Shown: piece by piece, positions 1 through 50,512 of the stretch | How positions within the stretch are numbered: position 1 is the first letter of the stretch | How the letters are laid out: each line of letters opens with the position of its first letter | NCBI RefSeq assembly: GCF_030013205.1 | Contig: NZ_CP122648.1 | Origin: Escherichia coli | Lineage (GTDB): Bacteria; Pseudomonadota; Gammaproteobacteria; Enterobacterales; Enterobacteriaceae | Direction: 5' to 3' (one strand) | DNA: 64,000 nt | Program-made: the position numbers and the translations under genes | The notes under the pieces: model-generated | Databases searched by the model: none | Seen by the model: the letters and a program-made list of their open reading frames with translations, nothing else | What the model was told of the DNA's origin: nothing

Positions 1-505
1 TTACGATCAAGTTATGGATAACAAAGGGTTACTCATCGCTGGTGCTTCAATAGTTGCTGGAGTTGTTCTGGGAAGAATGAGATTCCCTGATTTGGAATCA
101 CTTGAGCATTTCGGAGCCAGAGGAGCAGTATCAGGAAGACCATTTAATCCCGACCTTGCCGGTGGTCCAATTGAAAACCTGACGATAGATGGCGTAACAA
201 TCAACAGGGAAGGTATCGCTATTGTTGAAAAGCATATCTCCAGATTTGATCATGATCCAGCTAATGATGTAATCATTTCAAGGCTAAAGAAAATAGCAAA
301 TAAAGAATTGCTTCCTGAAAAATACGATCTGAACTACTATACTCATCAATGTCGCGAGTATCAGCGTTATTGTAATTTAGGATGGGAAACAGGTGAACCG
401 AAAGGTTTAGATGGATATGAATTATGGAATAATGTACATACTGCAACTCTAGAAGACTTTAAAATTAAAGATACTGACTTATTTCATCCGGATGCAAAAA
501 AATGA
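1..505 (+). CDS. 3' fragment of a larger ORF (reading frame open to window edge); candidate C-terminal toxin domain of a polymorphic toxin (CdiA/Rhs-type)
   Basis: Frame is open from position 2 so the true start lies upstream of the window; hydrophobic stretch then a soluble C-terminal domain; stop overlaps start of next ORF (ATGA at 502-505); I do not recognise the domain family. Confidence 0.35.
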   Translation, partial: YDQVMDNKGLLIAGASIVAGVVLGRMRFPDLESLEHFGARGAVSGRPFNPDLAGGPIENLTIDGVTINREGIAIVEKHISRFDHDPANDVIISRLKKIANKELLPEKYDLNYYTHQCREYQRYCNLGWETGEPKGLDGYELWNNVHTATLEDFKIKDTDLFHPDAKK

Positions 506-759
506 CGATTACGATAGTTGAATTTAACGTACTGAAAGTTATGGCTGAGAAAGATATTGACTGGAGCTGGATGGTGCTGGATCGTACTTTAGCTATACGA
601 AATATTCCAGGATTTGGCAACGTAGCGAATATCGTAACAAAGCTGGTTAATCATGGGTTGGTTGATATCGTAAATGGTGAGGGCAACTCTAGACCACGCT
701 ACAGAGTTTCTCAATATGGATTGAATCTTATCAAAGAACAACAAGACAACCTCTTCTGA
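502..759 (+). CDS. small 85-aa protein, candidate immunity protein
   Basis: ATG overlaps upstream stop (ATGA); about 60 percent identical by eye to the next ORF over the shared core NVL-VM-EKDI-W-WM-LDRTL-IR-IPGFGNV-NIV-KL. Confidence 0.35.
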   Translation: MTITIVEFNVLKVMAEKDIDWSWMVLDRTLAIRNIPGFGNVANIVTKLVNHGLVDIVNGEGNSRPRYRVSQYGLNLIKEQQDNLF

Positions 760-818
760 TCCAGCCATTACAGGAGCATGATTTACATTGTGATCTTTCA
801 ATAAGATACTCATCAATT

Positions 819-1079
819 TTGGTACAGAATATCGTGATCACTAAAAATGAACTTAACGTGCTGAACGTTATGACTGAGAAAGATATAAACTGGAACTGGA
901 TGAATCTCGATCGCACACTATCCATAAGGCAAATTCCAGGATTCGGGAATGTTGTTAACATTGTTAACAAATTAGCTAACGAAGGTTTGGTTATTATTGA
1001 GGATAGCGGGAATAAGTCTATGCCTCACTACCACGTTAGTGAAAAGGGATACAATCTCGTGCAACGTGAGAATAAATAA
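819..1079 (+). CDS. small 86-aa paralog of previous ORF, candidate second or orphan immunity protein
   Basis: Tandem paralog of 502..759; followed by hairpin ggcttccagtgctggaagcc near 1189-1208. Confidence 0.35.
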   Translation: MVQNIVITKNELNVLNVMTEKDINWNWMNLDRTLSIRQIPGFGNVVNIVNKLANEGLVIIEDSGNKSMPHYHVSEKGYNLVQRENK

Positions 1080-3626: not shown

Positions 3627-4580
3627 ATGATCGAAGTAAAACATCTGAAAACGCTACAAGCGTTGCGGAACTGCGGCTCGCTCGCAGCCGCTGCGGCGAC
3701 GTTGCATCAGACGCAATCCGCCCTGTCTCACCAGTTTAGCGATCTGGAACAACGCCTTGGCTTCCGGCTATTTGTGCGTAAAAGCCAGCCGCTTCGCTTT
3801 ACACCGCAGGGAGAAATCCTGTTGCAACTGGCAAACCAGGTGCTGCCGCAAATCAGCCAGGCACTGCAAGCCTGCAATGAACCGCAGCAGACGCGCCTGC
3901 GCATTGCCATCGAGTGCCATAGCTGTATTCAGTGGCTGACGCCCGCATTAGAAAACTTCCATAAGAACTGGCCGCAGGTAGAGATGGATTTTAAATCGGG
4001 CGTGACGTTTGACCCGCAGCCTGCGTTGCAACAGGGCGAGCTGGATCTGGTGATGACGTCAGATATTCTGCCGCGCAGTGGCCTGCATTATTCGCCGATG
4101 TTCGATTATGAAGTGCGTCTGGTATTGGCACCTGACCATCCACTGGCGGCGAAAACGCGTATTACACCGGAAGATCTCGCCAGCGAGACGCTGTTGATTT
4201 ATCCGGTGCAGCGTAGTCGACTGGATGTCTGGCGGCATTTTCTTCAGCCGGCAGGCGTCAGCCCGTCACTGAAAAGCGTCGATAACACCTTATTGTTGAT
4301 TCAGATGGTTGCCGCGCGGATGGGTATTGCCGCGCTACCGCATTGGGTAGTAGAGAGTTTTGAGCGCCAGGGTCTGGTGGTGACCAAAACCCTGGGTGAA
4401 GGCTTGTGGAGCCGACTGTACGCCGCCGTGCGCGATGGCGAGCAGCGTCAGCCGATTACAGAAGCGTTTATTCGCTCAGCGCGCAATCACGCCTGCGATC
4501 ATCTGCCGTTTGTGAAGAGCGCGGAGCGACCCACTTACGATGCACCCACAGTGAGGCCAGGATCACCAGCGCGCCTGTAA
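3627..4580 (+). CDS. metR: LysR-family regulator of methionine biosynthesis
   Basis: 317 aa; N-terminal HTH; divergent from metE as in E. coli. Confidence 0.93.
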
Positions 4581-12264: not shown

Positions 12265-13155
12265 ATGGATGCAAAACAAACGCGGCAGGGCGTATTACTC
12301 GCTCTTGCCGCTTATTTTATTTGGGGTATTGCGCCAGCGTACTTCAAGCTGATTTACTACGTGCCCGCCGATGAGATCCTGACGCATCGCGTGATCTGGT
12401 CGTTTTTCTTTATGGTGGTGCTGATGAGCATCTGCCGCCAGTGGTCCTATTTAAAAACGCTGATTCAGACGCCACAGAAAATTTTTATGCTGGCAGTCTC
12501 TGCCGTGCTGATTGGTGGCAACTGGCTACTGTTTATCTGGGCGGTGAACAATCACCATATGCTGGAAGCGAGCCTTGGTTACTTTATTAACCCGCTGGTG
12601 AACATTGTGCTGGGGATGATTTTCCTCGGCGAGCGATTCCGCCGGATGCAATGGCTGGCGGTGATTCTGGCGATATGTGGCGTGTTGGTTCAGTTGTGGA
12701 CTTTTGGTTCACTACCGATTATCGCGCTGGGGCTGGCGTTTAGTTTTGCCTTCTACGGCCTGGTACGCAAGAAGATTGCTGTTGAAGCGCAAACCGGCAT
12801 GTTAATCGAAACTATGTGGTTGCTGCCCGTGGCGGCGATTTACCTGTTTGCTATTGCCGACAGCTCAACCAGCCATATGGGGCAAAACCCGATTTCACTG
12901 AATTTACTGCTGATCGCCGCCGGGATTGTCACTACCGTACCGCTGTTGTGTTTTACTGCGGCTGCGACACGCCTGCGTCTCTCAACGTTAGGCTTTTTTC
13001 AGTACATTGGCCCGACGCTGATGTTCCTGCTGGCTGTGACGTTTTATGGTGAAAAACCGGGTGCCGATAAGATGGTGACCTTCGCCTTTATTTGGGTGGC
13101 GCTGGCAATTTTTGTGATGGATGCGATTTATACGCAGCGTAGAACGTCCAAATAA
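12265..13155 (+). CDS. rarD: EamA/DMT-family membrane protein
   Basis: 296 aa, polytopic membrane protein; conserved position next to yigI. Confidence 0.85.
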   Translation: MDAKQTRQGVLLALAAYFIWGIAPAYFKLIYYVPADEILTHRVIWSFFFMVVLMSICRQWSYLKTLIQTPQKIFMLAVSAVLIGGNWLLFIWAVNNHHMLEASLGYFINPLVNIVLGMIFLGERFRRMQWLAVILAICGVLVQLWTFGSLPIIALGLAFSFAFYGLVRKKIAVEAQTGMLIETMWLLPVAAIYLFAIADSSTSHMGQNPISLNLLLIAAGIVTTVPLLCFTAAATRLRLSTLGFFQYIGPTLMFLLAVTFYGEKPGADKMVTFAFIWVALAIFVMDAIYTQRRTSK

Positions 13156-13465
13156 AAAATAAATATATTCTGAAAAAATATGCCGACTCTTGCATGAGAG
13201 TGGGCATATTGCCATGCTGACAGGAGACTCACATAAGGAAAGGCAGAATTTCCAGACGTCGTTGTATATTTTCATTTGCTTTAATAAATTTCATTTTTAG
13301 TAAATTCAGCATTATGTTATTAGCGATGAGCAAGACCAATCATTAACCAAGCTCTCTTCAGAATGTAATGAAAAATGTGAAGTGCATTTCTTTTTTAAAA
13401 TTTTTTTACCCTATTATTTCTTATCAAATTAACATTGCCCTTAATTATAAGAAAGGAGAATATAA

Positions 13466-14314
13466 ATGAACAACATATTAGGCTCATCAATTAATATGCC
13501 CTGTACACTTTTCGAAACTATTACTTTATTCGATGATTTTTCTGCTGATGATATGCAATATGGGGATATGGAAGAACAAGATTTTCTCTCACTCGGCTTA
13601 AGCGACATCTCTGCAAAAGTTGATCCTTACCGCCTCATTAAATACCATTTTCCTGGGCCGAATTCTACTTATGGTGCTTTTAGTGTTCCAACTTCCGGAA
13701 CAAAAATATCACAAAGTGAATGTATTGATATTTTATTTGCAGAAATGAAAGATCTGGCAAAAATGTTTTCCTTTTTTGGACAATACAAAACACTCATCCA
13801 GGATCTGATTGATCATTTTAGATATGGAAATGGCAACAGTTTCCATAGCCAGGAATTGAACTTATCTTTTCATGAACGAATAAACAAATATGATTATAAT
13901 AGCCCAATACGTGTAATCAAAGAATGTATCGAAAATAATATTTCTTCAACACCTACGATAGGATACCGGCCTCTTCTCCTACAAAAGATTAAGATCGAAT
14001 TACTTTCATCAAGACTAAATAAATTCAATGATTTTAAAGATAATTTTAATGGCCTGGGAATCAGCATTCATGATATCTCAGCTCAAAAAATCTCTCTTTT
14101 AAATTTTCAAAAATATCCTATGGGCTGGAGCGCTACCATTCATTTCATAGCACAAGACCACTTTGGTTTGGATGTAACTGATATAAAAAACAAGACTTAC
14201 AGCAAATATAGATTTTTTCGCATATGGTTCTTTTTACAACGGCATAAAGACTTTGCTTTCAAACCTTTTTTCACCAATTTTAACACTATCGAAAGAATCG
14301 AAAATTATCTATGA
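13466..14314 (+). CDS. hypothetical soluble 282-aa protein, no signal peptide; accessory, AT-rich
   Basis: Clean ORF in visibly AT-rich DNA; Lys/Asn/Ile-rich AT-type codon usage; stop overlaps next start (ATGA at 14311-14314); may be DUF3289-like, from memory only. Confidence 0.6.
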   Translation: MNNILGSSINMPCTLFETITLFDDFSADDMQYGDMEEQDFLSLGLSDISAKVDPYRLIKYHFPGPNSTYGAFSVPTSGTKISQSECIDILFAEMKDLAKMFSFFGQYKTLIQDLIDHFRYGNGNSFHSQELNLSFHERINKYDYNSPIRVIKECIENNISSTPTIGYRPLLLQKIKIELLSSRLNKFNDFKDNFNGLGISIHDISAQKISLLNFQKYPMGWSATIHFIAQDHFGLDVTDIKNKTYSKYRFFRIWFFLQRHKDFAFKPFFTNFNTIERIENYL

Positions 14315-14802
14315 AAAGTAAACTCCAGAAAATTATATTATGTTTATTTCTTCTATGCTGCATCTATAATTTATGGACATTGCGTCCTGTACAGATTTTG
14401 TATACATACTCTGATGCTGGCAATTCAGTCTTTCTGGTCGTTGATCATCTGCCATGGACTGACAGCGATAAAATAAATTGGTATCTGAAGCATCAGAATG
14501 AAATTAAAAATCAACATCCCCTACCAGAAGGTAGTTGGCATACCTGGTATGTCATTGATATCGGTAATGGCTTCACTGACTATAAAAAATATATCGAAGG
14601 GCCGTATGAAGATCTCTACTGTTTCCCGACAATTAAGAGCAATGATAATTGCATCGTGAAAAATTACTTAATGGTTATTAATGAATACCCTTATCGTAAC
14701 ACTCATATTGGTATTAACGATTTTACTGAGTATCAATTAACACAAGAAAATAAAATAGAGCGAGTTTTCAATCCGCATGACTTTAAAAAAGACAATTTTT
14801 AG
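14311..14802 (+). CDS. hypothetical 163-aa protein with N-terminal membrane anchor or signal (KIILCLFLLCCIYNLW); candidate periplasmic partner or immunity protein
   Basis: Translationally coupled to upstream ORF; one N-terminal hydrophobic segment then soluble domain; may be DUF943-like, from memory only. Confidence 0.6.
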   Translation: MKSKLQKIILCLFLLCCIYNLWTLRPVQILYTYSDAGNSVFLVVDHLPWTDSDKINWYLKHQNEIKNQHPLPEGSWHTWYVIDIGNGFTDYKKYIEGPYEDLYCFPTIKSNDNCIVKNYLMVINEYPYRNTHIGINDFTEYQLTQENKIERVFNPHDFKKDNF

Positions 14803-14807
14803 AAATA

Positions 14808-14838
14808 AGCCGGATAAAAAATAGCTTTATCCGGCACT
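14808..14838. terminator. hairpin between convergent cassette and corA (gccggataaaaaatagctttatccggc)
   Basis: Perfect 10-bp stem read directly; sits between two convergent stop codons. Confidence 0.5.
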
Positions 14839-14842
14839 CATA

Positions 14843-15793
14843 TTACAACCAGTTCTTCCGCTTAAAGTACAGATACGGTGCCAGGCCCGCGAGGATCATA
14901 AAGATAATCGCGCCTGGGTAGCCGAAACTCCACTTCAGTTCTGGCATAAACTCAAAGTTCATCCCGTAGCTGGAAGCAACCAGTGTTGGCGGCAGGAACA
15001 CGACGGATACCACCGAGAAGATTTTGATGATGCGGTTCTGCTCGATGTTGATAAAGCCCATCGCCGCCTGCATCAGGAAGTTCACCTTCTGGAACAGAGA
15101 TTCGTTATGCGGCAGCAGGGATTCGATATCTCGCAGGATTTCACGCGCCTGCTCTAGTTGCCCGCCCGGTAAACGCGCCTTACGCACCAGGAAGTTGAGC
15201 GCACGCTGGGTATCCATCAGACACAGGCGAACTTTCCAGCCGATATCTTCCAGTTCCGCCAGCGTGGAGAGCGCCTCGTCGTACTCATCGCCCTGATGCC
15301 CTTCCATAATTACCCGGCTCAACTGCTCCAGGTCGCTGTAGATATTTTCAATTTCATCTGCCAACTGTTCGATTTTGGTTTCGAACAGATCCAGCAGCAG
15401 CTCGTAGGCATTACCGTCTACCATCGACTGGCTACGGGCACGCATACGATATAGACGAAAAGCGGGCAGTTCCCGCTCACGCAGAGTAAACAGACGACCA
15501 TCACGGATGGTAAATGCCACAGTGGAGTTACCGGCGTGATCTTCCGCATCTTCAAAGAAGAAGAAGGAGTGAATATGCAGGCCGTCATCGTCTTCAAAGA
15601 AACGTGCCGATGCTTCGATGTCTTCCAGTTCCGGGCGGGTTGCCAGGCTCTGGCCAAGTTCAGATTGTACGCGCAGTCGCTCGTCGTCGTCCGGTTCGAC
15701 AAGATCAATCCATACTGCATTTACAAGGGGTTGTGACTCTTCGACTTCCAGCCGGGTCAGTCGGTTATTTTCCAGTTGAAATGCGCTCAGCAT
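14843..15793 (-). CDS. corA: Mg2+/Co2+ transporter CorA
   Basis: ORF track gives 321 aa; trimmed to MLSAFQLEN start (316 aa); GMN motif (YGMNF) and C-terminal TM helices. Confidence 0.93.
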
Positions 15794-29038: not shown

Positions 29039-30232
29039 ATGACGGAACAAGAAAAAACCTCCGCCGTGGTTGAAGAGACCAGGGAGGCCGTGGACACCAC
29101 GTCACAACCTGTCGCAACAGAAAAAAAGAGTAAGAACAATACCGCATTGATTCTCAGCGCGGTGGCTATTGCTATTGCTCTGGCGGCGGGCGTCGGTTTG
29201 TATGGCTGGGGTAAACAACAGGCCGTCAATCAGACTGCCACCAGCGATGCCCTGGCTAATCAACTGACGGCACTGCAAAAAGCCCAGGAGAGCCAAAAAG
29301 CTGAGCTGGAAGGCATTATCAAGCAACAAGCTGTACAGCTTGAGCAGGCGAATCGTCAGCAAGAAACGCTGGCAAAACAGTTGGATGAAGTCCAACAAAA
29401 GGTCGCCACCATTTCCGGCAGCGATGCTAAAACCTGGCTGCTGGCTCAGGCCGATTTTCTGGTGAAACTCGCAGGACGGAAGCTGTGGAGCGATCAAGAC
29501 GTCACGACCGCTGCAGCGTTGCTGAAAAGTGCAGATGCCAGCCTGGCGGATATGAATGACCCGAGTCTGATTACCGTTCGTCGGGCAATTACCGATGATA
29601 TCGCCAGCCTTTCTGCGGTATCGCAGGTGGATTATGACGGCATCATCCTTAAGCTTAATCAGCTTTCAAATCAGGTAGATAACCTGCGTCTGGCCGATAA
29701 TGACAGCGATGGTTCGCCGATGGATTCCGACGGTGAAGAGCTTTCCAGTTCCATCAGCGAATGGCGTATCAATCTACAAAAAAGCTGGCAGAACTTTATG
29801 GACAACTTCATTACGATTCGCCGTCGTGATGACACCGCCGTACCGCTGTTAGCGCCAAATCAGGATATCTATCTGCGCGAAAATATTCGCTCTCGCCTGC
29901 TGGTCGCGGCACAAGCCGTACCGCGTCATCAGGAAGAGACTTATCGCCAGGCGCTGGAGAACGTCTCCACTTGGGTACGTGCTTACTACGATACTGATGA
30001 TGCCACCACCAAAGCGTTCCTCGACGAGGTGGACCAGTTAAGCCAGCAAAATATCTCGATGGATCTCCCGGAAACCCTGCAAAGCCAGGCGATGCTGGAA
30101 AAACTGATGCAGACTCGCGTGCGTAACCTGTTGGCACAACCGGCAGCGGGGACAACGGAAGCTAAACCTGCACCTGCACCTGCACCTGCACCGCAAGCTG
30201 ATACTCCGGCAGCCGCGCCGCAAGGAGAATAA
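29039..30232 (+). CDS. hemX: HemX, membrane-anchored coiled-coil protein
   Basis: 397 aa; N-terminal TM, Gln/Ala-rich coiled coil, C-terminal [10 protein letters not shown]. Confidence 0.88.
30167..30192 (+). repeat. hexanucleotide tandem repeat (cctgca x4 plus partial) encoding (PA)n at the hemX C-terminus
   Basis: Four perfect copies read directly. Confidence 0.85.
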
Positions 30233-30234
30233 CC

Positions 30235-31431
30235 ATGCTAAAAGTGTTATTGCTCTTTGTTTTGCTGATTGCGGGGATAGTGGTTGGCCCGATGATTGCC
30301 GGTCATCAGGGTTACGTATTGATTCAGACCGACAACTACAATATTGAAACCAGCGTCACTGGCCTGGCGATTATTTTGATTCTGGCGATGGTAGTGCTGT
30401 TTGCCATTGAGTGGCTACTGCGGCGGATCTTCCGCACAGGCGCACACACCCGTGGGTGGTTTGTCGGACGTAAGCGTCGCCGTGCCCGTAAGCAGACCGA
30501 ACAGGCGCTGCTGAAACTAGCGGAAGGCGATTATCAGCAAGTTGAAAAGCTGATGGCGAAAAATGCCGATCACGCTGAACAACCGGTGGTGAACTATCTA
30601 CTGGCTGCCGAAGCCGCGCAACAACGTGGTGATGAAGCACGCGCCAACCAACATCTGGAACGCGCAGCGGAGCTGGCCGGCAATGACACCATTCCGGTAG
30701 AAATCACCCGTGTACGTCTGCAACTGGCCCGTAATGAAAACCATGCTGCACGCCACGGCGTGGATAAGCTGCTGGAAGTTACGCCACGCCATCCGGAAGT
30801 ATTACGTCTGGCGGAACAGGCGTATATCCGCACAGGTGCATGGAGTTCGCTGCTGGATATCATCCCATCAATGGCGAAAGCCCATGTTGGTGATGAAGAA
30901 CATCGTGCAATGCTGGAACAACAGGCATGGATTGGCCTGATGGATCAGGCGCGTGCCGATAACGGTAGCGAAGGTTTGCGTAACTGGTGGAAAAACCAAA
31001 GCCGGAAAACGCGTCATCAGGTGGCGTTGCAGGTGGCAATGGCGGAACATCTTATTGAATGTGACGATCATGATACTGCCCAGCAAATTATCATCGACGG
31101 CCTGAAACGCCAGTATGACGATCGCCTACTGCTGCCGATCCCGCGTCTGAAAACCAATAACCCGGAACAGCTTGAAAAAGTGCTGCGCCAGCAAATCAAA
31201 AACGTCGGCGATCGCCCGCTGTTGTGGAGCACACTGGGTCAGTCGCTGATGAAGCACGGAGAATGGCAGGAAGCATCGCTCGCCTTCCGCGCAGCGCTGA
31301 AACAACGTCCGGACGCCTACGATTACGCATGGCTTGCCGACGCGCTGGACAGACTGCACAAACCAGAAGAAGCTGCAGCGATGCGCCGCGACGGTTTGAT
31401 GTTAACGTTGCAGAACAACCCGCCACAGTAG
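30235..31431 (+). CDS. hemY: HemY, TPR-containing inner membrane protein
   Basis: 398 aa; two N-terminal TM segments. Confidence 0.88.
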   Translation: MLKVLLLFVLLIAGIVVGPMIAGHQGYVLIQTDNYNIETSVTGLAIILILAMVVLFAIEWLLRRIFRTGAHTRGWFVGRKRRRARKQTEQALLKLAEGDYQQVEKLMAKNADHAEQPVVNYLLAAEAAQQRGDEARANQHLERAAELAGNDTIPVEITRVRLQLARNENHAARHGVDKLLEVTPRHPEVLRLAEQAYIRTGAWSSLLDIIPSMAKAHVGDEEHRAMLEQQAWIGLMDQARADNGSEGLRNWWKNQSRKTRHQVALQVAMAEHLIECDDHDTAQQIIIDGLKRQYDDRLLLPIPRLKTNNPEQLEKVLRQQIKNVGDRPLLWSTLGQSLMKHGEWQEASLAFRAALKQRPDAYDYAWLADALDRLHKPEEAAAMRRDGLMLTLQNNPPQ

Positions 31432-31440
31432 TTCTTTCTC

Positions 31441-31466
31441 ACCCGGAGGCAAGCTCCTCCGGGACC
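31441..31466. terminator. hairpin cccggagg-N6-cctccggg downstream of hemY, facing glmZ 3' end
   Basis: 8-bp GC-rich stem read directly; weak T tract. Confidence 0.4.
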
Positions 31467-31478
31467 TTTCTGATACAT

Positions 31479-31685
31479 AAAAAAACGCCTGCTCTTATTA
31501 CGGAGCAGGCGTTAAAACAGGTCTGTATGACAACAAGTGGGTGCTTCACTCAACGTTGTGTCCATGGTGTCTGATGAGGCATAAGCGACATCTGTCAGTG
31601 GACGATAAGCACCGTAAACGGCTCTGCGTCATTCCGGAGTTTATGAGGCTCTAAGGCGAACATAAGAGATGGAATGAGCATCTAC
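31479..31685 (-). ncRNA. glmZ: GlmZ small RNA (regulator of glmS)
   Basis: Reverse complement begins GTAGATGCTCATTCCATCTCTTATGTTCGCC and ends in a hairpin GCCTGCTCCGTAATAAGAGCAGGCG plus U tract, matching GlmZ as I recall it; lies between hemY and aslA as in E. coli. Confidence 0.8.
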
Positions 31686-32109
31686 TCGTTTATTATGCCA
31701 CAGAGAACCGGGAAATAACATCCCTTAACACTTGTTATGAGATAATTCTGTAATCCTCTTTGCTTCCTGAGTAATAACTTCCTGAGTGAATATTTCTCCT
31801 GCGCACGATTCTACACATATATATAATGAATAATAAAAGTCATTCAATTAATAACATATATATTAATTGCCGTTAAAACTAAAAACAGCATCAATAATCA
31901 ACGCGATATAACATCACCGCCTTACATATCACCTGCGCCAGAGGTAGGATTGAAAACGCTCTCCTGATTTTCCAATTCATTATCTGGATAAATAAATAAT
32001 TTATTTTCATCACTATTATTTATGCAATCATCCTGTCAGGGAGAGGGATCTCAATTATCAATGCTTAATTACGTCAACATTTTGACGACATGAAACCGGA
32101 GCATTTTGC

Positions 32110-33765
32110 ATGGAATTTTCGTTTTCACCCAAACTTCTTGTTGTGGCTGTCGCCGCCGCTCTTCCACTCATGGCCAACGCAGCAGATACCCCGTCAACCG
32201 CCACCGCACGCAAAGGCTTTGCCGGATACGATCACCCAAACCAGTATCTGGTTAAACCGGCGACCACTATTGCCGACAACATGATGCCTGTGATGCAGCA
32301 TCCTGCACAAGACAAAGAAACCCAGCAGAAGCTGGCAGAACTTGAGAAAAAAACCGGTAAGAAACCGAACGTGGTTGTTTTCTTGCTGGATGATGTGGGC
32401 TGGATGGATGTTGGCTTTAACGGCGGCGGCGTGGCGGTGGGTAACCCTACACCAGATATCGACGCCGTTGCCAGCCAGGGGCTGATTTTAACTTCGGCGT
32501 ATTCTCAACCGAGTTCTTCCCCAACCCGCGCCACGATTCTTACCGGACAATACTCCATCCACCACGGCATTCTGATGCCGCCAATGTACGGGCAACCGGG
32601 CGGTCTGCAAGGGTTAACCACTCTGCCGCAGTTGCTGCACGATCAGGGCTACGTCACTCAGGCCATCGGGAAATGGCATATGGGGGAAAACAAAGAGTCG
32701 CAGCCGCAGAACGTTGGCTTTGATGATTTCCGCGGCTTTAACTCGGTATCCGATATGTATACCGAATGGCGTGATGTTCACGTCAACCCGGAAGTCGCCC
32801 TGAGCCCGGATCGTTCTGAATACATCCAAAAACTGCCGTTCAGCAAAGATGACGTTCATGCCGTGCGCGGCGGTGAACAGGAAGCCATTGCCGACATTAC
32901 GCCGAAATATATGGAAGACCTGGATCAACGCTGGATGGAATATGGCGTTAAGTTCCTCGACAAGATGGCGAAGAGCGATAAGCCTTTCTTCCTCTACTAC
33001 GGCACTCGCGGCTGTCACTTCGATAACTACCCAAATGCGAAATATGCGGGTAGCTCTCCGGCGCGCACCTCTTACGGCGACTGCATGGTGGAGATGAACG
33101 ATATCTTCGCCAATCTGTATAAAGCACTGGAGAAAAACGGTCAGCTTGATAACACGCTGATTGTGTTCACCTCTGATAACGGTCCGGAAGCCGAAGTTCC
33201 GCCGCACGGTCGCACACCGTTCCGCGGTGCGAAAGGTTCTACATGGGAAGGCGGCGTTCGTGTGCCAACCTTCGTTTACTGGAAAGGCATGATCCAACCG
33301 CGTAAATCTGACGGTATTGTCGATCTGGCGGATCTCTTCCCAACCGCGCTGGATCTGGCGGGGCATCCTGGAGCGAAAGTGGCGAATTTAGTGCCGAAAA
33401 CCACCTTTATCGATGGTGTGGACCAGACATCTTTCTTCCTGGGAACAAATGGTCAGTCTAACCGTAAGGCCGAGCACTACTTCCTCAACGGTAAACTCGC
33501 TGCTGTGCGTATGGATGAGTTCAAGTATCACGTCCTGATTCAGCAACCTTACGCGTATACCCAGAGCGGGTATCAGGGTGGATTCACCGGCACAGTAATG
33601 CAAACGGCGGGATCGTCGGTGTTTAACCTGTACACCGATCCGCAGGAAAGCGACTCTATCGGCGTGCGCCATATCCCAATGGGTGTACCGCTACAGACCG
33701 AAATGCATGCGTATATGGAGATCCTGAAAAAATATCCACCACGCGCGCAGATTAAATCTGATTAA
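32110..33765 (+). CDS. aslA: arylsulfatase-family protein with signal peptide
   Basis: 551 aa; sulfatase motif with active-site Ser ([11 protein letters not shown]) rather than Cys. Confidence 0.9.
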
Positions 33766-33800
33766 GCCGGCGCTATCGCTACATCGGGCCACACTGACCT

Positions 33801-33832
33801 TGCCGGATGCGGCGTGAACGCCTTATCCGGCA
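33801..33832. repeat. REP element between aslA and aslB
   Basis: tgccggatgcggcgtgaacgccttatccggca is a canonical REP. Confidence 0.7.
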
Positions 33833-33845
33833 ATCAACCGCAGGC

Positions 33846-33870
33846 GGCCACAAAATGGCCGCTTTTTTTA
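33846..33870 (+). terminator. rho-independent terminator after aslA (gcggccacaaaatggccgc + T7)
   Basis: Hairpin followed by T run read directly. Confidence 0.6.
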
Positions 33871-35103
33871 CTTATTCACCACCATCAAATGCGCCTGCAT
33901 AATGTCGCTGGCCGGACGACCGTGCGCCAGCAAATCAGCCATTGCTTTAAGATATGGCGGTAGATGGCGGAAATAACGCTGATACCCGGCACACAAATAA
34001 TTCAGCCCCGGTTTGCCGCTGGCATCGAGCATAAAGCGGTGTTTCGGACAGCCTCCCCAGCACGCTTTTAACACGTTGCAACTGCGACACTGCGCCGGTA
34101 ACTGCTTAAATTTATCTTCACCAAACACCTGCTGTTGCGGGGAATCTACCATTTCTGCAATTGTCTGCTGAAGCATATTCCCCAGTCGATATTGCGGATA
34201 AACATAGTGATCGCAGGCGTAAACGTCACCGTTGTGCTCAACAATCACCGAGCGCCCACAGGTTGGCTGATGATGGCAAACCGCACCTGGCGCACCAACA
34301 AAATTGGCAAACGCCCATTCGATATTCATCACGAAAATCTTGCCGACGTCGCGTTTGATCCAGTGGTCGAATATCGCCACCAAAAATTCACCGAACTCAT
34401 CGGGGCGTACCGACCATTCCGTCAGTTCGCCCTGAATATCGCCGGGAGCATGTAGCTTAAGTCCAGCATGAGCAGCCGTTTCATCAGCCAGGCGCTCGAC
34501 CACCGGAATAAACTGGATGAACTCAGCGCCTGCATCACACAGAAAATCATAGACTTGCAAAGGTTGTAACGCACTGGTGCGATTAACGCAGACCAGCACG
34601 TTATAGTCGACATGATGTTTTTGCAGGAGCATCAGGGCACGCATCACCAGCTTATGCGTTGGTCTGCCGCCTTTGGTCACGCGATATTGATTGTGGATCT
34701 CAGCCGGACCATCCAGCGATAACCCAACAAGAAAATGATTTTCTGCCAGAAACGCACACCATTCGTCATCAAGCAGAACGCCGTTAGTCTGGAAGCTGTT
34801 ACTTATCTTCCTGCCAGCACCATATTTCGTCTGTAGCGCCACGGCACGGCGGTAAAAATCCAGCCCGAGTAACGTTGGTTCGCCGCCCTGCCAGGTAAAA
34901 GCCACTTCGTTTTGGGTTTCGCTGGCAGCGATATAGTGACGGACATACGCTTCCAGCGTGTCATCGTCCATATGCGTGACTGGCTTTTCGCGGTAAAGGG
35001 ATTGTTTTTCGAGATAAAAACAGTAGTCACAGTTCAGATTACAATCGGAACCGCTCGGTTTCGCCATCACATGAAAAGCACGCGTTGGAACCTGTTGCAG
35101 CAT
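33868..35103 (-). CDS. aslB: anaerobic sulfatase-maturating enzyme homolog (radical SAM)
   Basis: CxxxCxxC radical SAM motif (CNLNCDYC); trimmed to MLQQVPTRAFHV start. Confidence 0.88.
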   Translation of the reverse strand: MLQQVPTRAFHVMAKPSGSDCNLNCDYCFYLEKQSLYREKPVTHMDDDTLEAYVRHYIAASETQNEVAFTWQGGEPTLLGLDFYRRAVALQTKYGAGRKISNSFQTNGVLLDDEWCAFLAENHFLVGLSLDGPAEIHNQYRVTKGGRPTHKLVMRALMLLQKHHVDYNVLVCVNRTSALQPLQVYDFLCDAGAEFIQFIPVVERLADETAAHAGLKLHAPGDIQGELTEWSVRPDEFGEFLVAIFDHWIKRDVGKIFVMNIEWAFANFVGAPGAVCHHQPTCGRSVIVEHNGDVYACDHYVYPQYRLGNMLQQTIAEMVDSPQQQVFGEDKFKQLPAQCRSCNVLKACWGGCPKHRFMLDASGKPGLNYLCAGYQRYFRHLPPYLKAMADLLAHGRPASDIMQAHLMVVNK

Positions 35104-35213
35104 GGTCGCTCCTTGCCTGAAGTCATCCTTCAATAAGTTAAGGGCGAAATCATACCGTGGCGCAATGAGTTATTACGGGCGTTTATTGCGAAGGGAAAGT
35201 GACGAAATGCACA

Positions 35214-35243
35214 GAAAACAAAAAACCCCGCCGAAGCGGGGTT
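35214..35243 (-). terminator. rho-independent terminator of the tRNA operon
   Basis: On minus strand aaccccgcttcggcgggg followed by U run, immediately 3' of proM. Confidence 0.7.
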
Positions 35244-35249
35244 CAAAAT

Positions 35250-35326
35250 TGGTCGGCGAGAGAGGATTCGAACCTCCGACCCACTGGTCCCAAACCAGTT
35301 GCGCTACCAAGCTGCGCTACTCGCCG
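35250..35326 (-). tRNA. proM: tRNA-Pro (anticodon UGG)
   Basis: Reverse complement CGGCGAGTAGCGCAGCTTGGTAGCGCAACTGGTTTGGGACCAGTGGGTCGGAGGTTCGAATCCTCTCTCGCCGACCA. Confidence 0.92.
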
Positions 35327-35368
35327 AAATACTGCTTTTTGAATTTTTAGTTCAATTCTTTAAAGTCG

Positions 35369-35455
35369 TGGTGCGAGGGGGGGGACTTGAACCCCCACGT
35401 CCGTAAGGACACTAACACCTGAAGCTAGCGCGTCTACCAATTCCGCCACCTTCGC
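35369..35455 (-). tRNA. leuT: tRNA-Leu (anticodon CAG)
   Basis: Reverse complement GCGAAGGTGGCGGAATTGGTAGACGCGCTAGCTTCAGGTG...CGCACCA with long variable arm. Confidence 0.92.
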
Positions 35456-35475
35456 ATTGTCACAACTTCTAATAA

Positions 35476-35552
35476 TGGGGTGGCTAATGGGATTCGAACC
35501 CACGACAACTGGAATCACAATCCAGGGCTCTACCAACTGAGCTATAGCCACC
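35476..35552 (-). tRNA. hisR: tRNA-His (anticodon GUG)
   Basis: Reverse complement GGTGGCTATAGCTCAGTTGGTAGAGCCCTGGATTGTGATTCCAGTTGTCGTGGGTTCGAATCCCATTAGCCACCCCA. Confidence 0.92.
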
Positions 35553-35609
35553 ACTACAAATCTTGTTACGCGGTATTACTACCACCGCAGCTCAAGCGCC
35601 GGGACTAAA

Positions 35610-35686
<77 letters not shown>

Positions 35687-50052: not shown

Positions 50053-50382
50053 TTACGCCAGATTAGCGTCGAGGAACTCTTTCAACTGACCTTTAGACAG
50101 TGCGCCCACTTTGGTTGCCGCCACTTCACCGTTTTTGAACAGTAGCAGAGTCGGGATACCACGGATGCCATATTTCGGCGCAGTGCCAGGGTTTTGATCG
50201 ATGTTCAGTTTTGCAACGGTCAGTTTGCCCTGATATTCGTCAGCGATTTCATCCAGAATCGGGGCGATCATTTTGCACGGACCGCACCACTCTGCCCAGA
50301 AATCGACGAGGATCGCCCCGTCCGCTTTGAGTACATCCGTGTCAAAACTGTCGTCAGTCAGGTGAATAATTTTATCGCTCAT
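50053..50382 (-). CDS. trxA: thioredoxin 1
   Basis: ORF track is over-extended to 144 aa; trimmed to [13 protein letters not shown] start (109 aa); WCGPC active site. Confidence 0.96.
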
Positions 50383-50512
50383 ATATAACTCCACAGGAAT
50401 AAGCCTGGCGTGTTGGTTTCGTTGTTGGTGTAACATTAACCAACTAAAGGTTGACTTTATTTCACCGGATACGCTTTCGTAAAGCAATAGTAAGCTGATA
50501 TTCTACCACACT

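Follow-up and report, generated by a model that had tools for sequence, protein, structure and literature searches.

In the 64,000-nucleotide stretch of Escherichia coli DNA analysed here (the window; contig NZ_CP122648.1), the interval between hemY and aslA holds the gene for the small RNA GlmZ, at 31479-31685 on the minus strand, and, at 31686-32109, an AT-rich divergent control region that is common to glmZ and aslA, a reading to which we give a probability of about 0.93. The identity of the RNA gene as E. coli glmZ, an object already known in detail, is confirmed, and the first-pass annotation, which had placed GlmZ on the minus strand of the hemY-aslA spacer, proved exact to the base when set against the covariance-model match, annotation and synteny. 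PGAP-annotated E. coli records carry no feature in this interval, leaving a blank of 678 bp between the two protein genes, and the practical value of the result is that of an annotation note: the PGAP gap holds a functional RNA gene.

The covariance-model search that the first-pass annotation had proposed was carried out with cmscan over the whole window at the Rfam gathering threshold. It returned GlmZ_SraJ (RF00083) as the sole small RNA match, at 31479-31685 on the minus strand (218.1 bits against a gathering threshold of 60, E 4e-56), with positions 1-214 of the 214-position model covered, such that the RNA is not truncated and corresponds to the full-length, 207-nt GlmZ with its +1 at 31685. 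The ORF list contains no credible ORF covering 31479-32109, in agreement with the earlier remark that the interval escapes a protein ORF scan; the only ORFs that touch it are a 116-aa ORF at 31224-31574, which extends out of the 3' part of hemY in a different frame, and several of 40-51 aa. The surrounding gene order, taken from the ORFs and from the RefSeq annotation of strain 7/2 (which is 100% identical to the window over the 801 bases searched, 31400-32200), runs from hemX (29039-30232) and hemY (30235-31431) on the plus strand, through glmZ on the minus strand, to aslA on the plus strand (32110-33765, encoding the 551-aa arylsulfatase AslA), and then, again on the minus strand, to aslB (about 33868-35103) and the argX-hisR-leuT-proM tRNA operon (35250-35686). 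glmZ is thus convergent with the 3' end of hemCDXY, hemY ending at 31431 and the glmZ terminator at 31479. Directly past the hemY stop, a plus-strand hairpin at 31442-31463, CCCGGAGG-CAAGCT-CCTCCGGG, can be read from the sequence; it is likely to be the hemCDXY terminator, facing that of glmZ, and has a weak T run, the terminator scan having passed over it. hemY lies downstream of glmZ in 105 of the 120 species loci listed, the other loci being mostly short.

The comparison with E. coli K-12 leads to the same identification. The K-12 record NC_000913.3 annotates glmZ (b4456) at the homologous position, and the GlmZ (SraJ/RyiA) of that strain shares the locus, the strand relation and the 207-nt length of the window RNA. 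While identity over 31400-32200 as a whole is 95.8%, 206 of the 207 GlmZ bases are the same, and the terminator, the linker that pairs with glmS and the sigma70 promoter hexamers are all shared. The sole substitution in GlmZ, A in the window for U in K-12, falls at nt 36 (31650) in the apical loop of stem-loop 1 (SL1), and a further difference (C/T) lies at -23, between the -35 and -10 hexamers; neither is expected to matter for function. The identity of GlmZ reaches 99% or more in 5422 of the 5424 E. coli genomes that have a match.

Conservation of the fold extends well beyond the species. The consensus structure calculated with RNAalifold for 24 genera contains 47 pairs in three stem-loops, 15 of them with double-sided compensatory changes, and the single-sequence fold is better than that of shuffled controls (z -3.46). 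SL1, which occupies about nt 4-65 (31621-31682, minus strand), is defined by the Rfam structure, the MFE fold and covarying pairs, and the central stem-loop 2 (SL2), nt 73-146 (31540-31613, minus strand), by the Rfam structure together with covariation across the 24 genera; alignment columns 98 and 183, for example, read CG in 14 sequences and UA in 10. At the 3' end lies the intrinsic terminator (31479-31513, minus strand; Rfam structure and terminator scan), made up of a hairpin at 31484-31513 and a U tail. The scan found 11 pairs, seven of them G-C, followed by a T run on the minus strand, which bears out the terminator hairpin as the cue by which the RNA had first been recognised, and the 24-genus alignment retains nine pairs, six with compensatory changes.

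The first ~40 bp of the AT-rich spacer are the promoter of glmZ. Read on the minus strand, they run ATGTTA-18 bp-TGgCATAAT-6 bp-G(+1); this places the extended -10 element TGgCATAAT (-15 to -7) at 31692-31700, its -10 hexamer at 31692-31697, and the putative -35 hexamer ATGTTA (three of six consensus matches, 18-bp spacer) at 31716-31721. We infer this assignment of the -35 from the sequence; it fits the published description of three consensus-matching bases within -40 (PMC3045617). Both hexamers are identical to those of K-12, and TGTGnnATAAT is conserved in all genera in which aslA adjoins glmZ. In K-12 the promoter was mapped by deletion and mutation: -40 to +1 is enough for promoter activity, mutation of either the -35 or the -10 abolishes it, GlrR binding was negative by EMSA, and expression is independent of glrR and rpoN, in keeping with a constitutive sigma70 promoter (Göpel et al. 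2011, PMC3045617). The promoter fragment used in that study, -424 to +32, has the same upstream length as the 424-bp spacer described here. In the window strain, transcription would likewise begin at 31685, driven constitutively by this sigma70 promoter of extended -10 type, and both the minus-strand transcript and its processing are expected by extension from K-12.

Two other sources point to different promoter positions in the spacer. A generic sigma70 scan produced only two weak minus-strand sites, within 32012-32054, which is about chance expectation, and missed the real glmZ promoter because its -35 is poor. The best-match glmZ promoter listed after RpoD genomic SELEX, TTGAGA-17-GATGAT (Shimada et al. 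2014, PMC3946193), maps to about 32054-32027 on the minus strand, some 340 bp from the real glmZ start (our scan gave it a 16-bp spacer). This catalogue entry differs from the experimentally defined promoter, and we rejected it since it conflicts with the mutational mapping by Göpel et al. to what is here 31692-31721. The best-match aslA promoter from the same work, TTAACA-18-TGTAAT, maps to 31725-31754 on the plus strand.

The spacer itself (31686-32109, 424 bp from the glmZ +1 to the aslA ATG) has a GC content of 0.34, where the window as a whole has 0.52 and GlmZ 0.47. This value is among the lowest 1.8% when all 424-bp windows are ranked, so that the very AT-rich DNA first noticed upstream of aslA is real. 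GC falls to 0.305-0.315 in 200-bp windows within 31700-31999, and TpA steps are 2.3 times as frequent as in the window (0.099 vs 0.043). Of 13 non-coding gaps, crudely called and 150 bp or longer, only that at 13156-13465 (GC 0.30) is more AT-rich. The first-pass annotation had described this DNA as the aslA upstream region, which is correct as far as it goes; in the direction of transcription, however, the same DNA lies upstream of glmZ and does not follow it, as had been written. The glmZ promoter takes up its first ~40 bp, and divergent glmZ/aslA promoter region is the better description. The remaining ~380 bp would then serve as the aslA regulatory region and leader, with the Shine-Dalgarno sequence GGAG shortly before the ATG start at 32110 (32098-32112, plus strand; sequence and annotation), of which GGAG and ATGGA are invariant over the four aslA-adjacent genera.

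The spacer had also been called typical of nucleoid-protein-silenced promoters, a claim of which part stands. In the genomic SELEX data of Shimada et al. it is listed in Table 1 as 'aslA < HNS > glmZ', with binding of RpoD holoenzyme and an H-NS site (PMC3946193); it is thus itself an entry among the H-NS-marked 'type-A' divergent spacers of that study, AT-rich and lying between divergent genes. On this in vitro basis the spacer is likely to be an H-NS-bound region, and the binding makes silencing plausible. The motif evidence does not add to the claim: the H-NS 10-mer TCGATAAATT, allowing at most two mismatches, occurs 69 times in the window against 59 expected and is not enriched, and the spacer contains a single two-mismatch match to this nucleation-type motif (tCGATAAATT-like), at 31985. 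Of the other marks of a xenogeneic-type, H-NS-silenced region, a position in DNA apparently acquired relative to sister lineages (see below) fits, but the coding GC of aslA and aslB is ordinary. Our search of the literature found neither in vivo H-NS occupancy of the aslA-glmZ spacer nor a report of aslA derepression in the absence of H-NS. The Higashi 2016 supplement enters aslB alone, with flags that are uninterpretable; an hns mutation raises aslB 12.9-fold, an indirect effect that passes through RcsB/GadE and HdfR (PMC2984483), and aslA has been reported to be indirectly RpoE-dependent in E. coli K1. Silencing of aslA by H-NS is therefore best regarded as reasonable but unproven.

Set against this is the simpler view that the spacer is ordinary, weakly constrained divergent-promoter DNA, AT-rich through the generic composition of promoters or mutational bias and owing nothing to silencing by a nucleoid protein. 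Besides the lack of motif enrichment, its variability speaks for this view. The spacer belongs to the core sequence of the species (5422 of 5426 E. coli genomes), yet only 526 genomes match the window in it at 99% identity or more, and 3474 do so at 90-95%, far from the constancy of GlmZ; substitutions relative to K-12 cluster at 31796-31833 and 31912-31919. Between genera it cannot be aligned save for the glmZ -10 element and the aslA Shine-Dalgarno sequence and ATG, and other intergenic gaps in the window have GC contents of 0.30-0.39. Against it, however, stand the reported H-NS binding and the comparative composition: AT-richness is kept in four genera (GC 0.30-0.34) despite the divergence in sequence, which suggests that composition itself is maintained, and the fall in GC relative to the rest of the locus is 0.21 at aslA-adjacent loci, compared with 0.11 for other glmZ upstream regions. 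We consider this view possible, though on the doubtful side.

Two small features of the spacer bear on whether it hides a further element that annotation has missed, such as another sRNA, a gene for a small protein or an aslA leader with a structure of its own. One is a direct repeat of 15 bp in tandem, TTCCTGAGTAATAAC / TTCCTGAGTGAATAT, at 31764-31793, 79-108 bp upstream of the glmZ +1, in which we recognised no known binding site. K-12 has both copies and E. albertii the second only, and the repeat seems to be a recent duplication. The other is a plus-strand inverted repeat, CGTCAA-CATT-TTGACG, at 32072-32087, which precedes the aslA start codon by about 25-40 nt and probably lies within the aslA leader. 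A hairpin at this site is kept, with other bases or in another register, in K-12 (GTCATCA-TTT-TGATGAC), in E. albertii (GACATCA-ATT-TGATGTC, with a symmetric T/A swap) and in a divergent Escherichia lineage, and an aslA promoter at 31725-31754 would imply a leader of ~350 nt. The hairpins are present in aslA-leader folds whose energy is nevertheless no better than that of shuffled sequences (z -1.1 to -1.6); a permissive Rfam search of 31380-32200 gave, besides GlmZ, sub-threshold chance matches only; the ORFs of the spacer, in stop-rich AT DNA, are 40-51 aa long; and no block of the spacer is conserved between genera. A further element of this kind is accordingly improbable.

We compared glmZ loci across species-representative genomes. 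A GlmZ-pattern scan gave at least 120 loci, and the counts that follow refer to the 110, among the matches listed, with at least 300 bp upstream; true Klebsiella, reported as sigma70-only, is absent from the sampled loci. In six of these 110, aslA is the divergent neighbour of glmZ: E. albertii, a divergent Escherichia lineage, Superficieibacter electus, Pseudocitrobacter faecalis and two Kluyvera species. In Yersinia, Salmonella and most Enterobacterales the glmZ promoter depends on sigma54, GlrR (QseF) and IHF (Göpel et al. 2011). Using a relaxed sigma54 expression, the first regular expression having been too strict and without matches, we found TGGCAC-N5-TGCA at exactly -27 in 97 of the 104 other loci and at least one perfect TGTCN10GACA site in 88 of the 104, whereas neither a sigma54 -24/-12 motif nor a TGTCN10GACA GlrR site within 400 bp upstream was found in any of the six aslA-adjacent loci, again among the matches listed. 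The 400 bp upstream of glmZ have a GC content of 0.30-0.34 in the six, 0.21 below the rest of the locus, and in the other 104 listed loci the upstream GC is 0.11 below it. The window, unlike the sigma54-type promoters, likewise lacks the TGGCAC -24 element of TGGCAC-N5-TGCA at -27 and any TGTCN10GACA site. What the spacers of aslA-adjacent genera share is limited to the extended -10, similarity to about -70, the aslA Shine-Dalgarno sequence and ATG, and AT-richness. The glmZ loci of Citrobacter sp. Cu233, C. youngae, Phytobacter and Pluralibacter are without aslA, and their upstream sequence (-45 to +1) has a mutated -24 (CCGCAT instead of TGGCAT, for example) next to an intact TGTGnAATAAT -10; point mutation is apparently removing the sigma54 dependence of glmZ in these further lineages.

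The distance between proM and glmZ suggests how the promoter switch of the aslA-adjacent genera may have come about. There are genera in which 200-330 bp separate proM from glmZ: from the proM end of the tRNA operon to the glmZ +1 is 300-330 bp in Salmonella, Citrobacter, Enterobacter and Mangrovibacter, in which aslA-aslB is absent from between the two, and 3.6 kb in E. coli, E. albertii and S. electus, because aslA-aslB sits there. Homology between the window and Salmonella is restricted to -2 to -17 of glmZ, including the -10/-12 region (CGTTTATTATGCCACA against CGTATATTATTGCACA), and to the last ~45 bp before proM, a piece that corresponds to the tRNA operon terminator at about 35205-35249. 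An aslA-aslB cassette, its AT-rich promoter included, thus appears to have taken the place of all sequence beyond about -18 on the upstream side of glmZ, as a putative insertion of ~3.5 kb (31703-35204, as judged from the tRNA positions and Salmonella homology) made up of the AT-rich spacer, aslA and aslB. Such a replacement would account for the change of glmZ from sigma54 to sigma70, for which Göpel et al. (2011, PMC3045617) had proposed a gradual loss. In this model, which we put a little above even odds, the spacer is the left edge of a cassette lodged between the proM terminator and about -18 of glmZ, whose arrival removed the sigma54 -24 element and the GlrR and IHF sites in a single event and uncoupled GlmZ synthesis from the QseE/QseF (GlrK/GlrR) envelope-stress system in Escherichia, Kluyvera, Pseudocitrobacter and Superficieibacter.

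The ~70 bp next to glmZ that these genera seem to have in common, and what looks like a scar in Superficieibacter sp. 1612_C1, suggest that the cassette arose once and was then spread by recombination. The latter is without aslAB and keeps the ~70-bp sigma70-type upstream segment of S. electus, such that the absence looks like a secondary deletion. Two observations count against the insertion model: the sigma54 motifs have also decayed where aslA is absent, in Citrobacter youngae, Phytobacter and Pluralibacter, and the coding DNA of both aslA and aslB has an ordinary GC content. The insertion model for the promoter switch is the only modestly new element of the analysis; were it borne out, it would show neatly how the insertion of genes can rewire regulation, a point mainly of specialist interest. 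At the other end of the cassette, beside aslB, Kluyvera cryocrescens has a tandem duplicate of tRNA-Pro(UGG) at the proM end (locus 3932-4183), which might be a trace of integration at a tRNA gene. Within the cassette region, the convergent aslA-aslB spacer (33766-33867) is 102 bp long here and 158 bp in K-12, and the 56 bp extra in K-12 are possibly a REP-type element.

Downstream of SL2, GlmZ carries the single-stranded linker through which it would act, nt 149-170 (31516-31537, minus strand), assigned from RNAduplex and the literature. Calculated for the linker only, and against the K-12 glmS leader, as the strain's own glmS lies outside the window, these nucleotides are predicted to pair with glmS -41 to -21 at -19.2 kcal/mol, an energy no better than that of shuffled controls (mean -17.3, sd 3.1); it is therefore by position, falling as it does on the published site at -41 to -19 (PMC4152352), that the pairing is assigned, and not by statistics. 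A duplex calculation with the whole GlmZ molecule was discarded as meaningless, since it ignores intramolecular structure. The published processed form of GlmZ is ~151 nt long, and SL2 is reported to be bound by RapZ (review, PMC4152352); the RNase E/RapZ processing site (~nt 151) sits at the 5' edge of the linker.

Because SL2 and the linker are identical to those of K-12, binding of RapZ and Hfq and cleavage by RNase E can be expected here, and the mechanism established in K-12 for GlmZ, Hfq, RapZ, RNase E and GlmY (PMC4152352) presumably applies to the window copy through its near-identity. At low glucosamine-6-phosphate, GlmZ together with Hfq would pair through nt 149-170 with the glmS leader (-41 to -21), exposing the glmS ribosome-binding site by opening the hairpin in which it is hidden, with the result that GlmS synthesis increases. 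At high glucosamine-6-phosphate, RapZ would bind the central stem-loop and hand GlmZ over to RNase E, whose cut at about nt 151 would take off the glmS-pairing site, while GlmY, building up when the metabolite is low, would titrate RapZ as a decoy and in this way counteract the cleavage. GlmZ is the base-pairing arm of this GlmY/GlmZ/RapZ circuit, which balances glucosamine-6-phosphate and with it the supply of peptidoglycan and LPS precursors, and which, as worked out in E. coli K-12, is the textbook example of an RNase adaptor that is countered by a decoy RNA; the window copy is essentially that of K-12, and finding it adds nothing new to GlmZ.

The decoy RNA also bears on the identification, since GlmY (RF00128) and GlmZ belong to one Rfam clan, from which the scan suppressed a lower-scoring overlapping match, and have homologous folds with SL1 and SL2 in common; yet the notion that the RNA is GlmY, or a GlmY/GlmZ-like paralogue and no functional GlmZ, can be dismissed, as the best clan member is GlmZ_SraJ with 218 bits over the full model, the gene occupies the conserved hemY-linked glmZ site while glmY sits upstream of glrK and adjoins glrK-yfhG-glrR, and the RNA carries, unchanged from K-12, the glmS-pairing linker that is missing from GlmY.

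Elsewhere in the window, three further features were seen. A match to the TrxA 5' UTR thermometer (RF02773; 78.8 bits, gathering threshold 58) lies at 50353-50452 on the minus strand and agrees with the presence of trxA in this part of the E. coli chromosome. Between corA and rarD (~12971-15060) the window is at its most AT-rich, with a 424-bp GC minimum of 0.297; this stretch carries 'YPO3983 family' and 'DUF943' genes, where K-12-like strains have yigF/yigG instead; it is covered to at least 80% in only 2624 of 5425 E. coli genomes and is thus a variable islet. A further AT-rich trough, with a GC content of about 0.35, is found at the left edge of the window (1-844).
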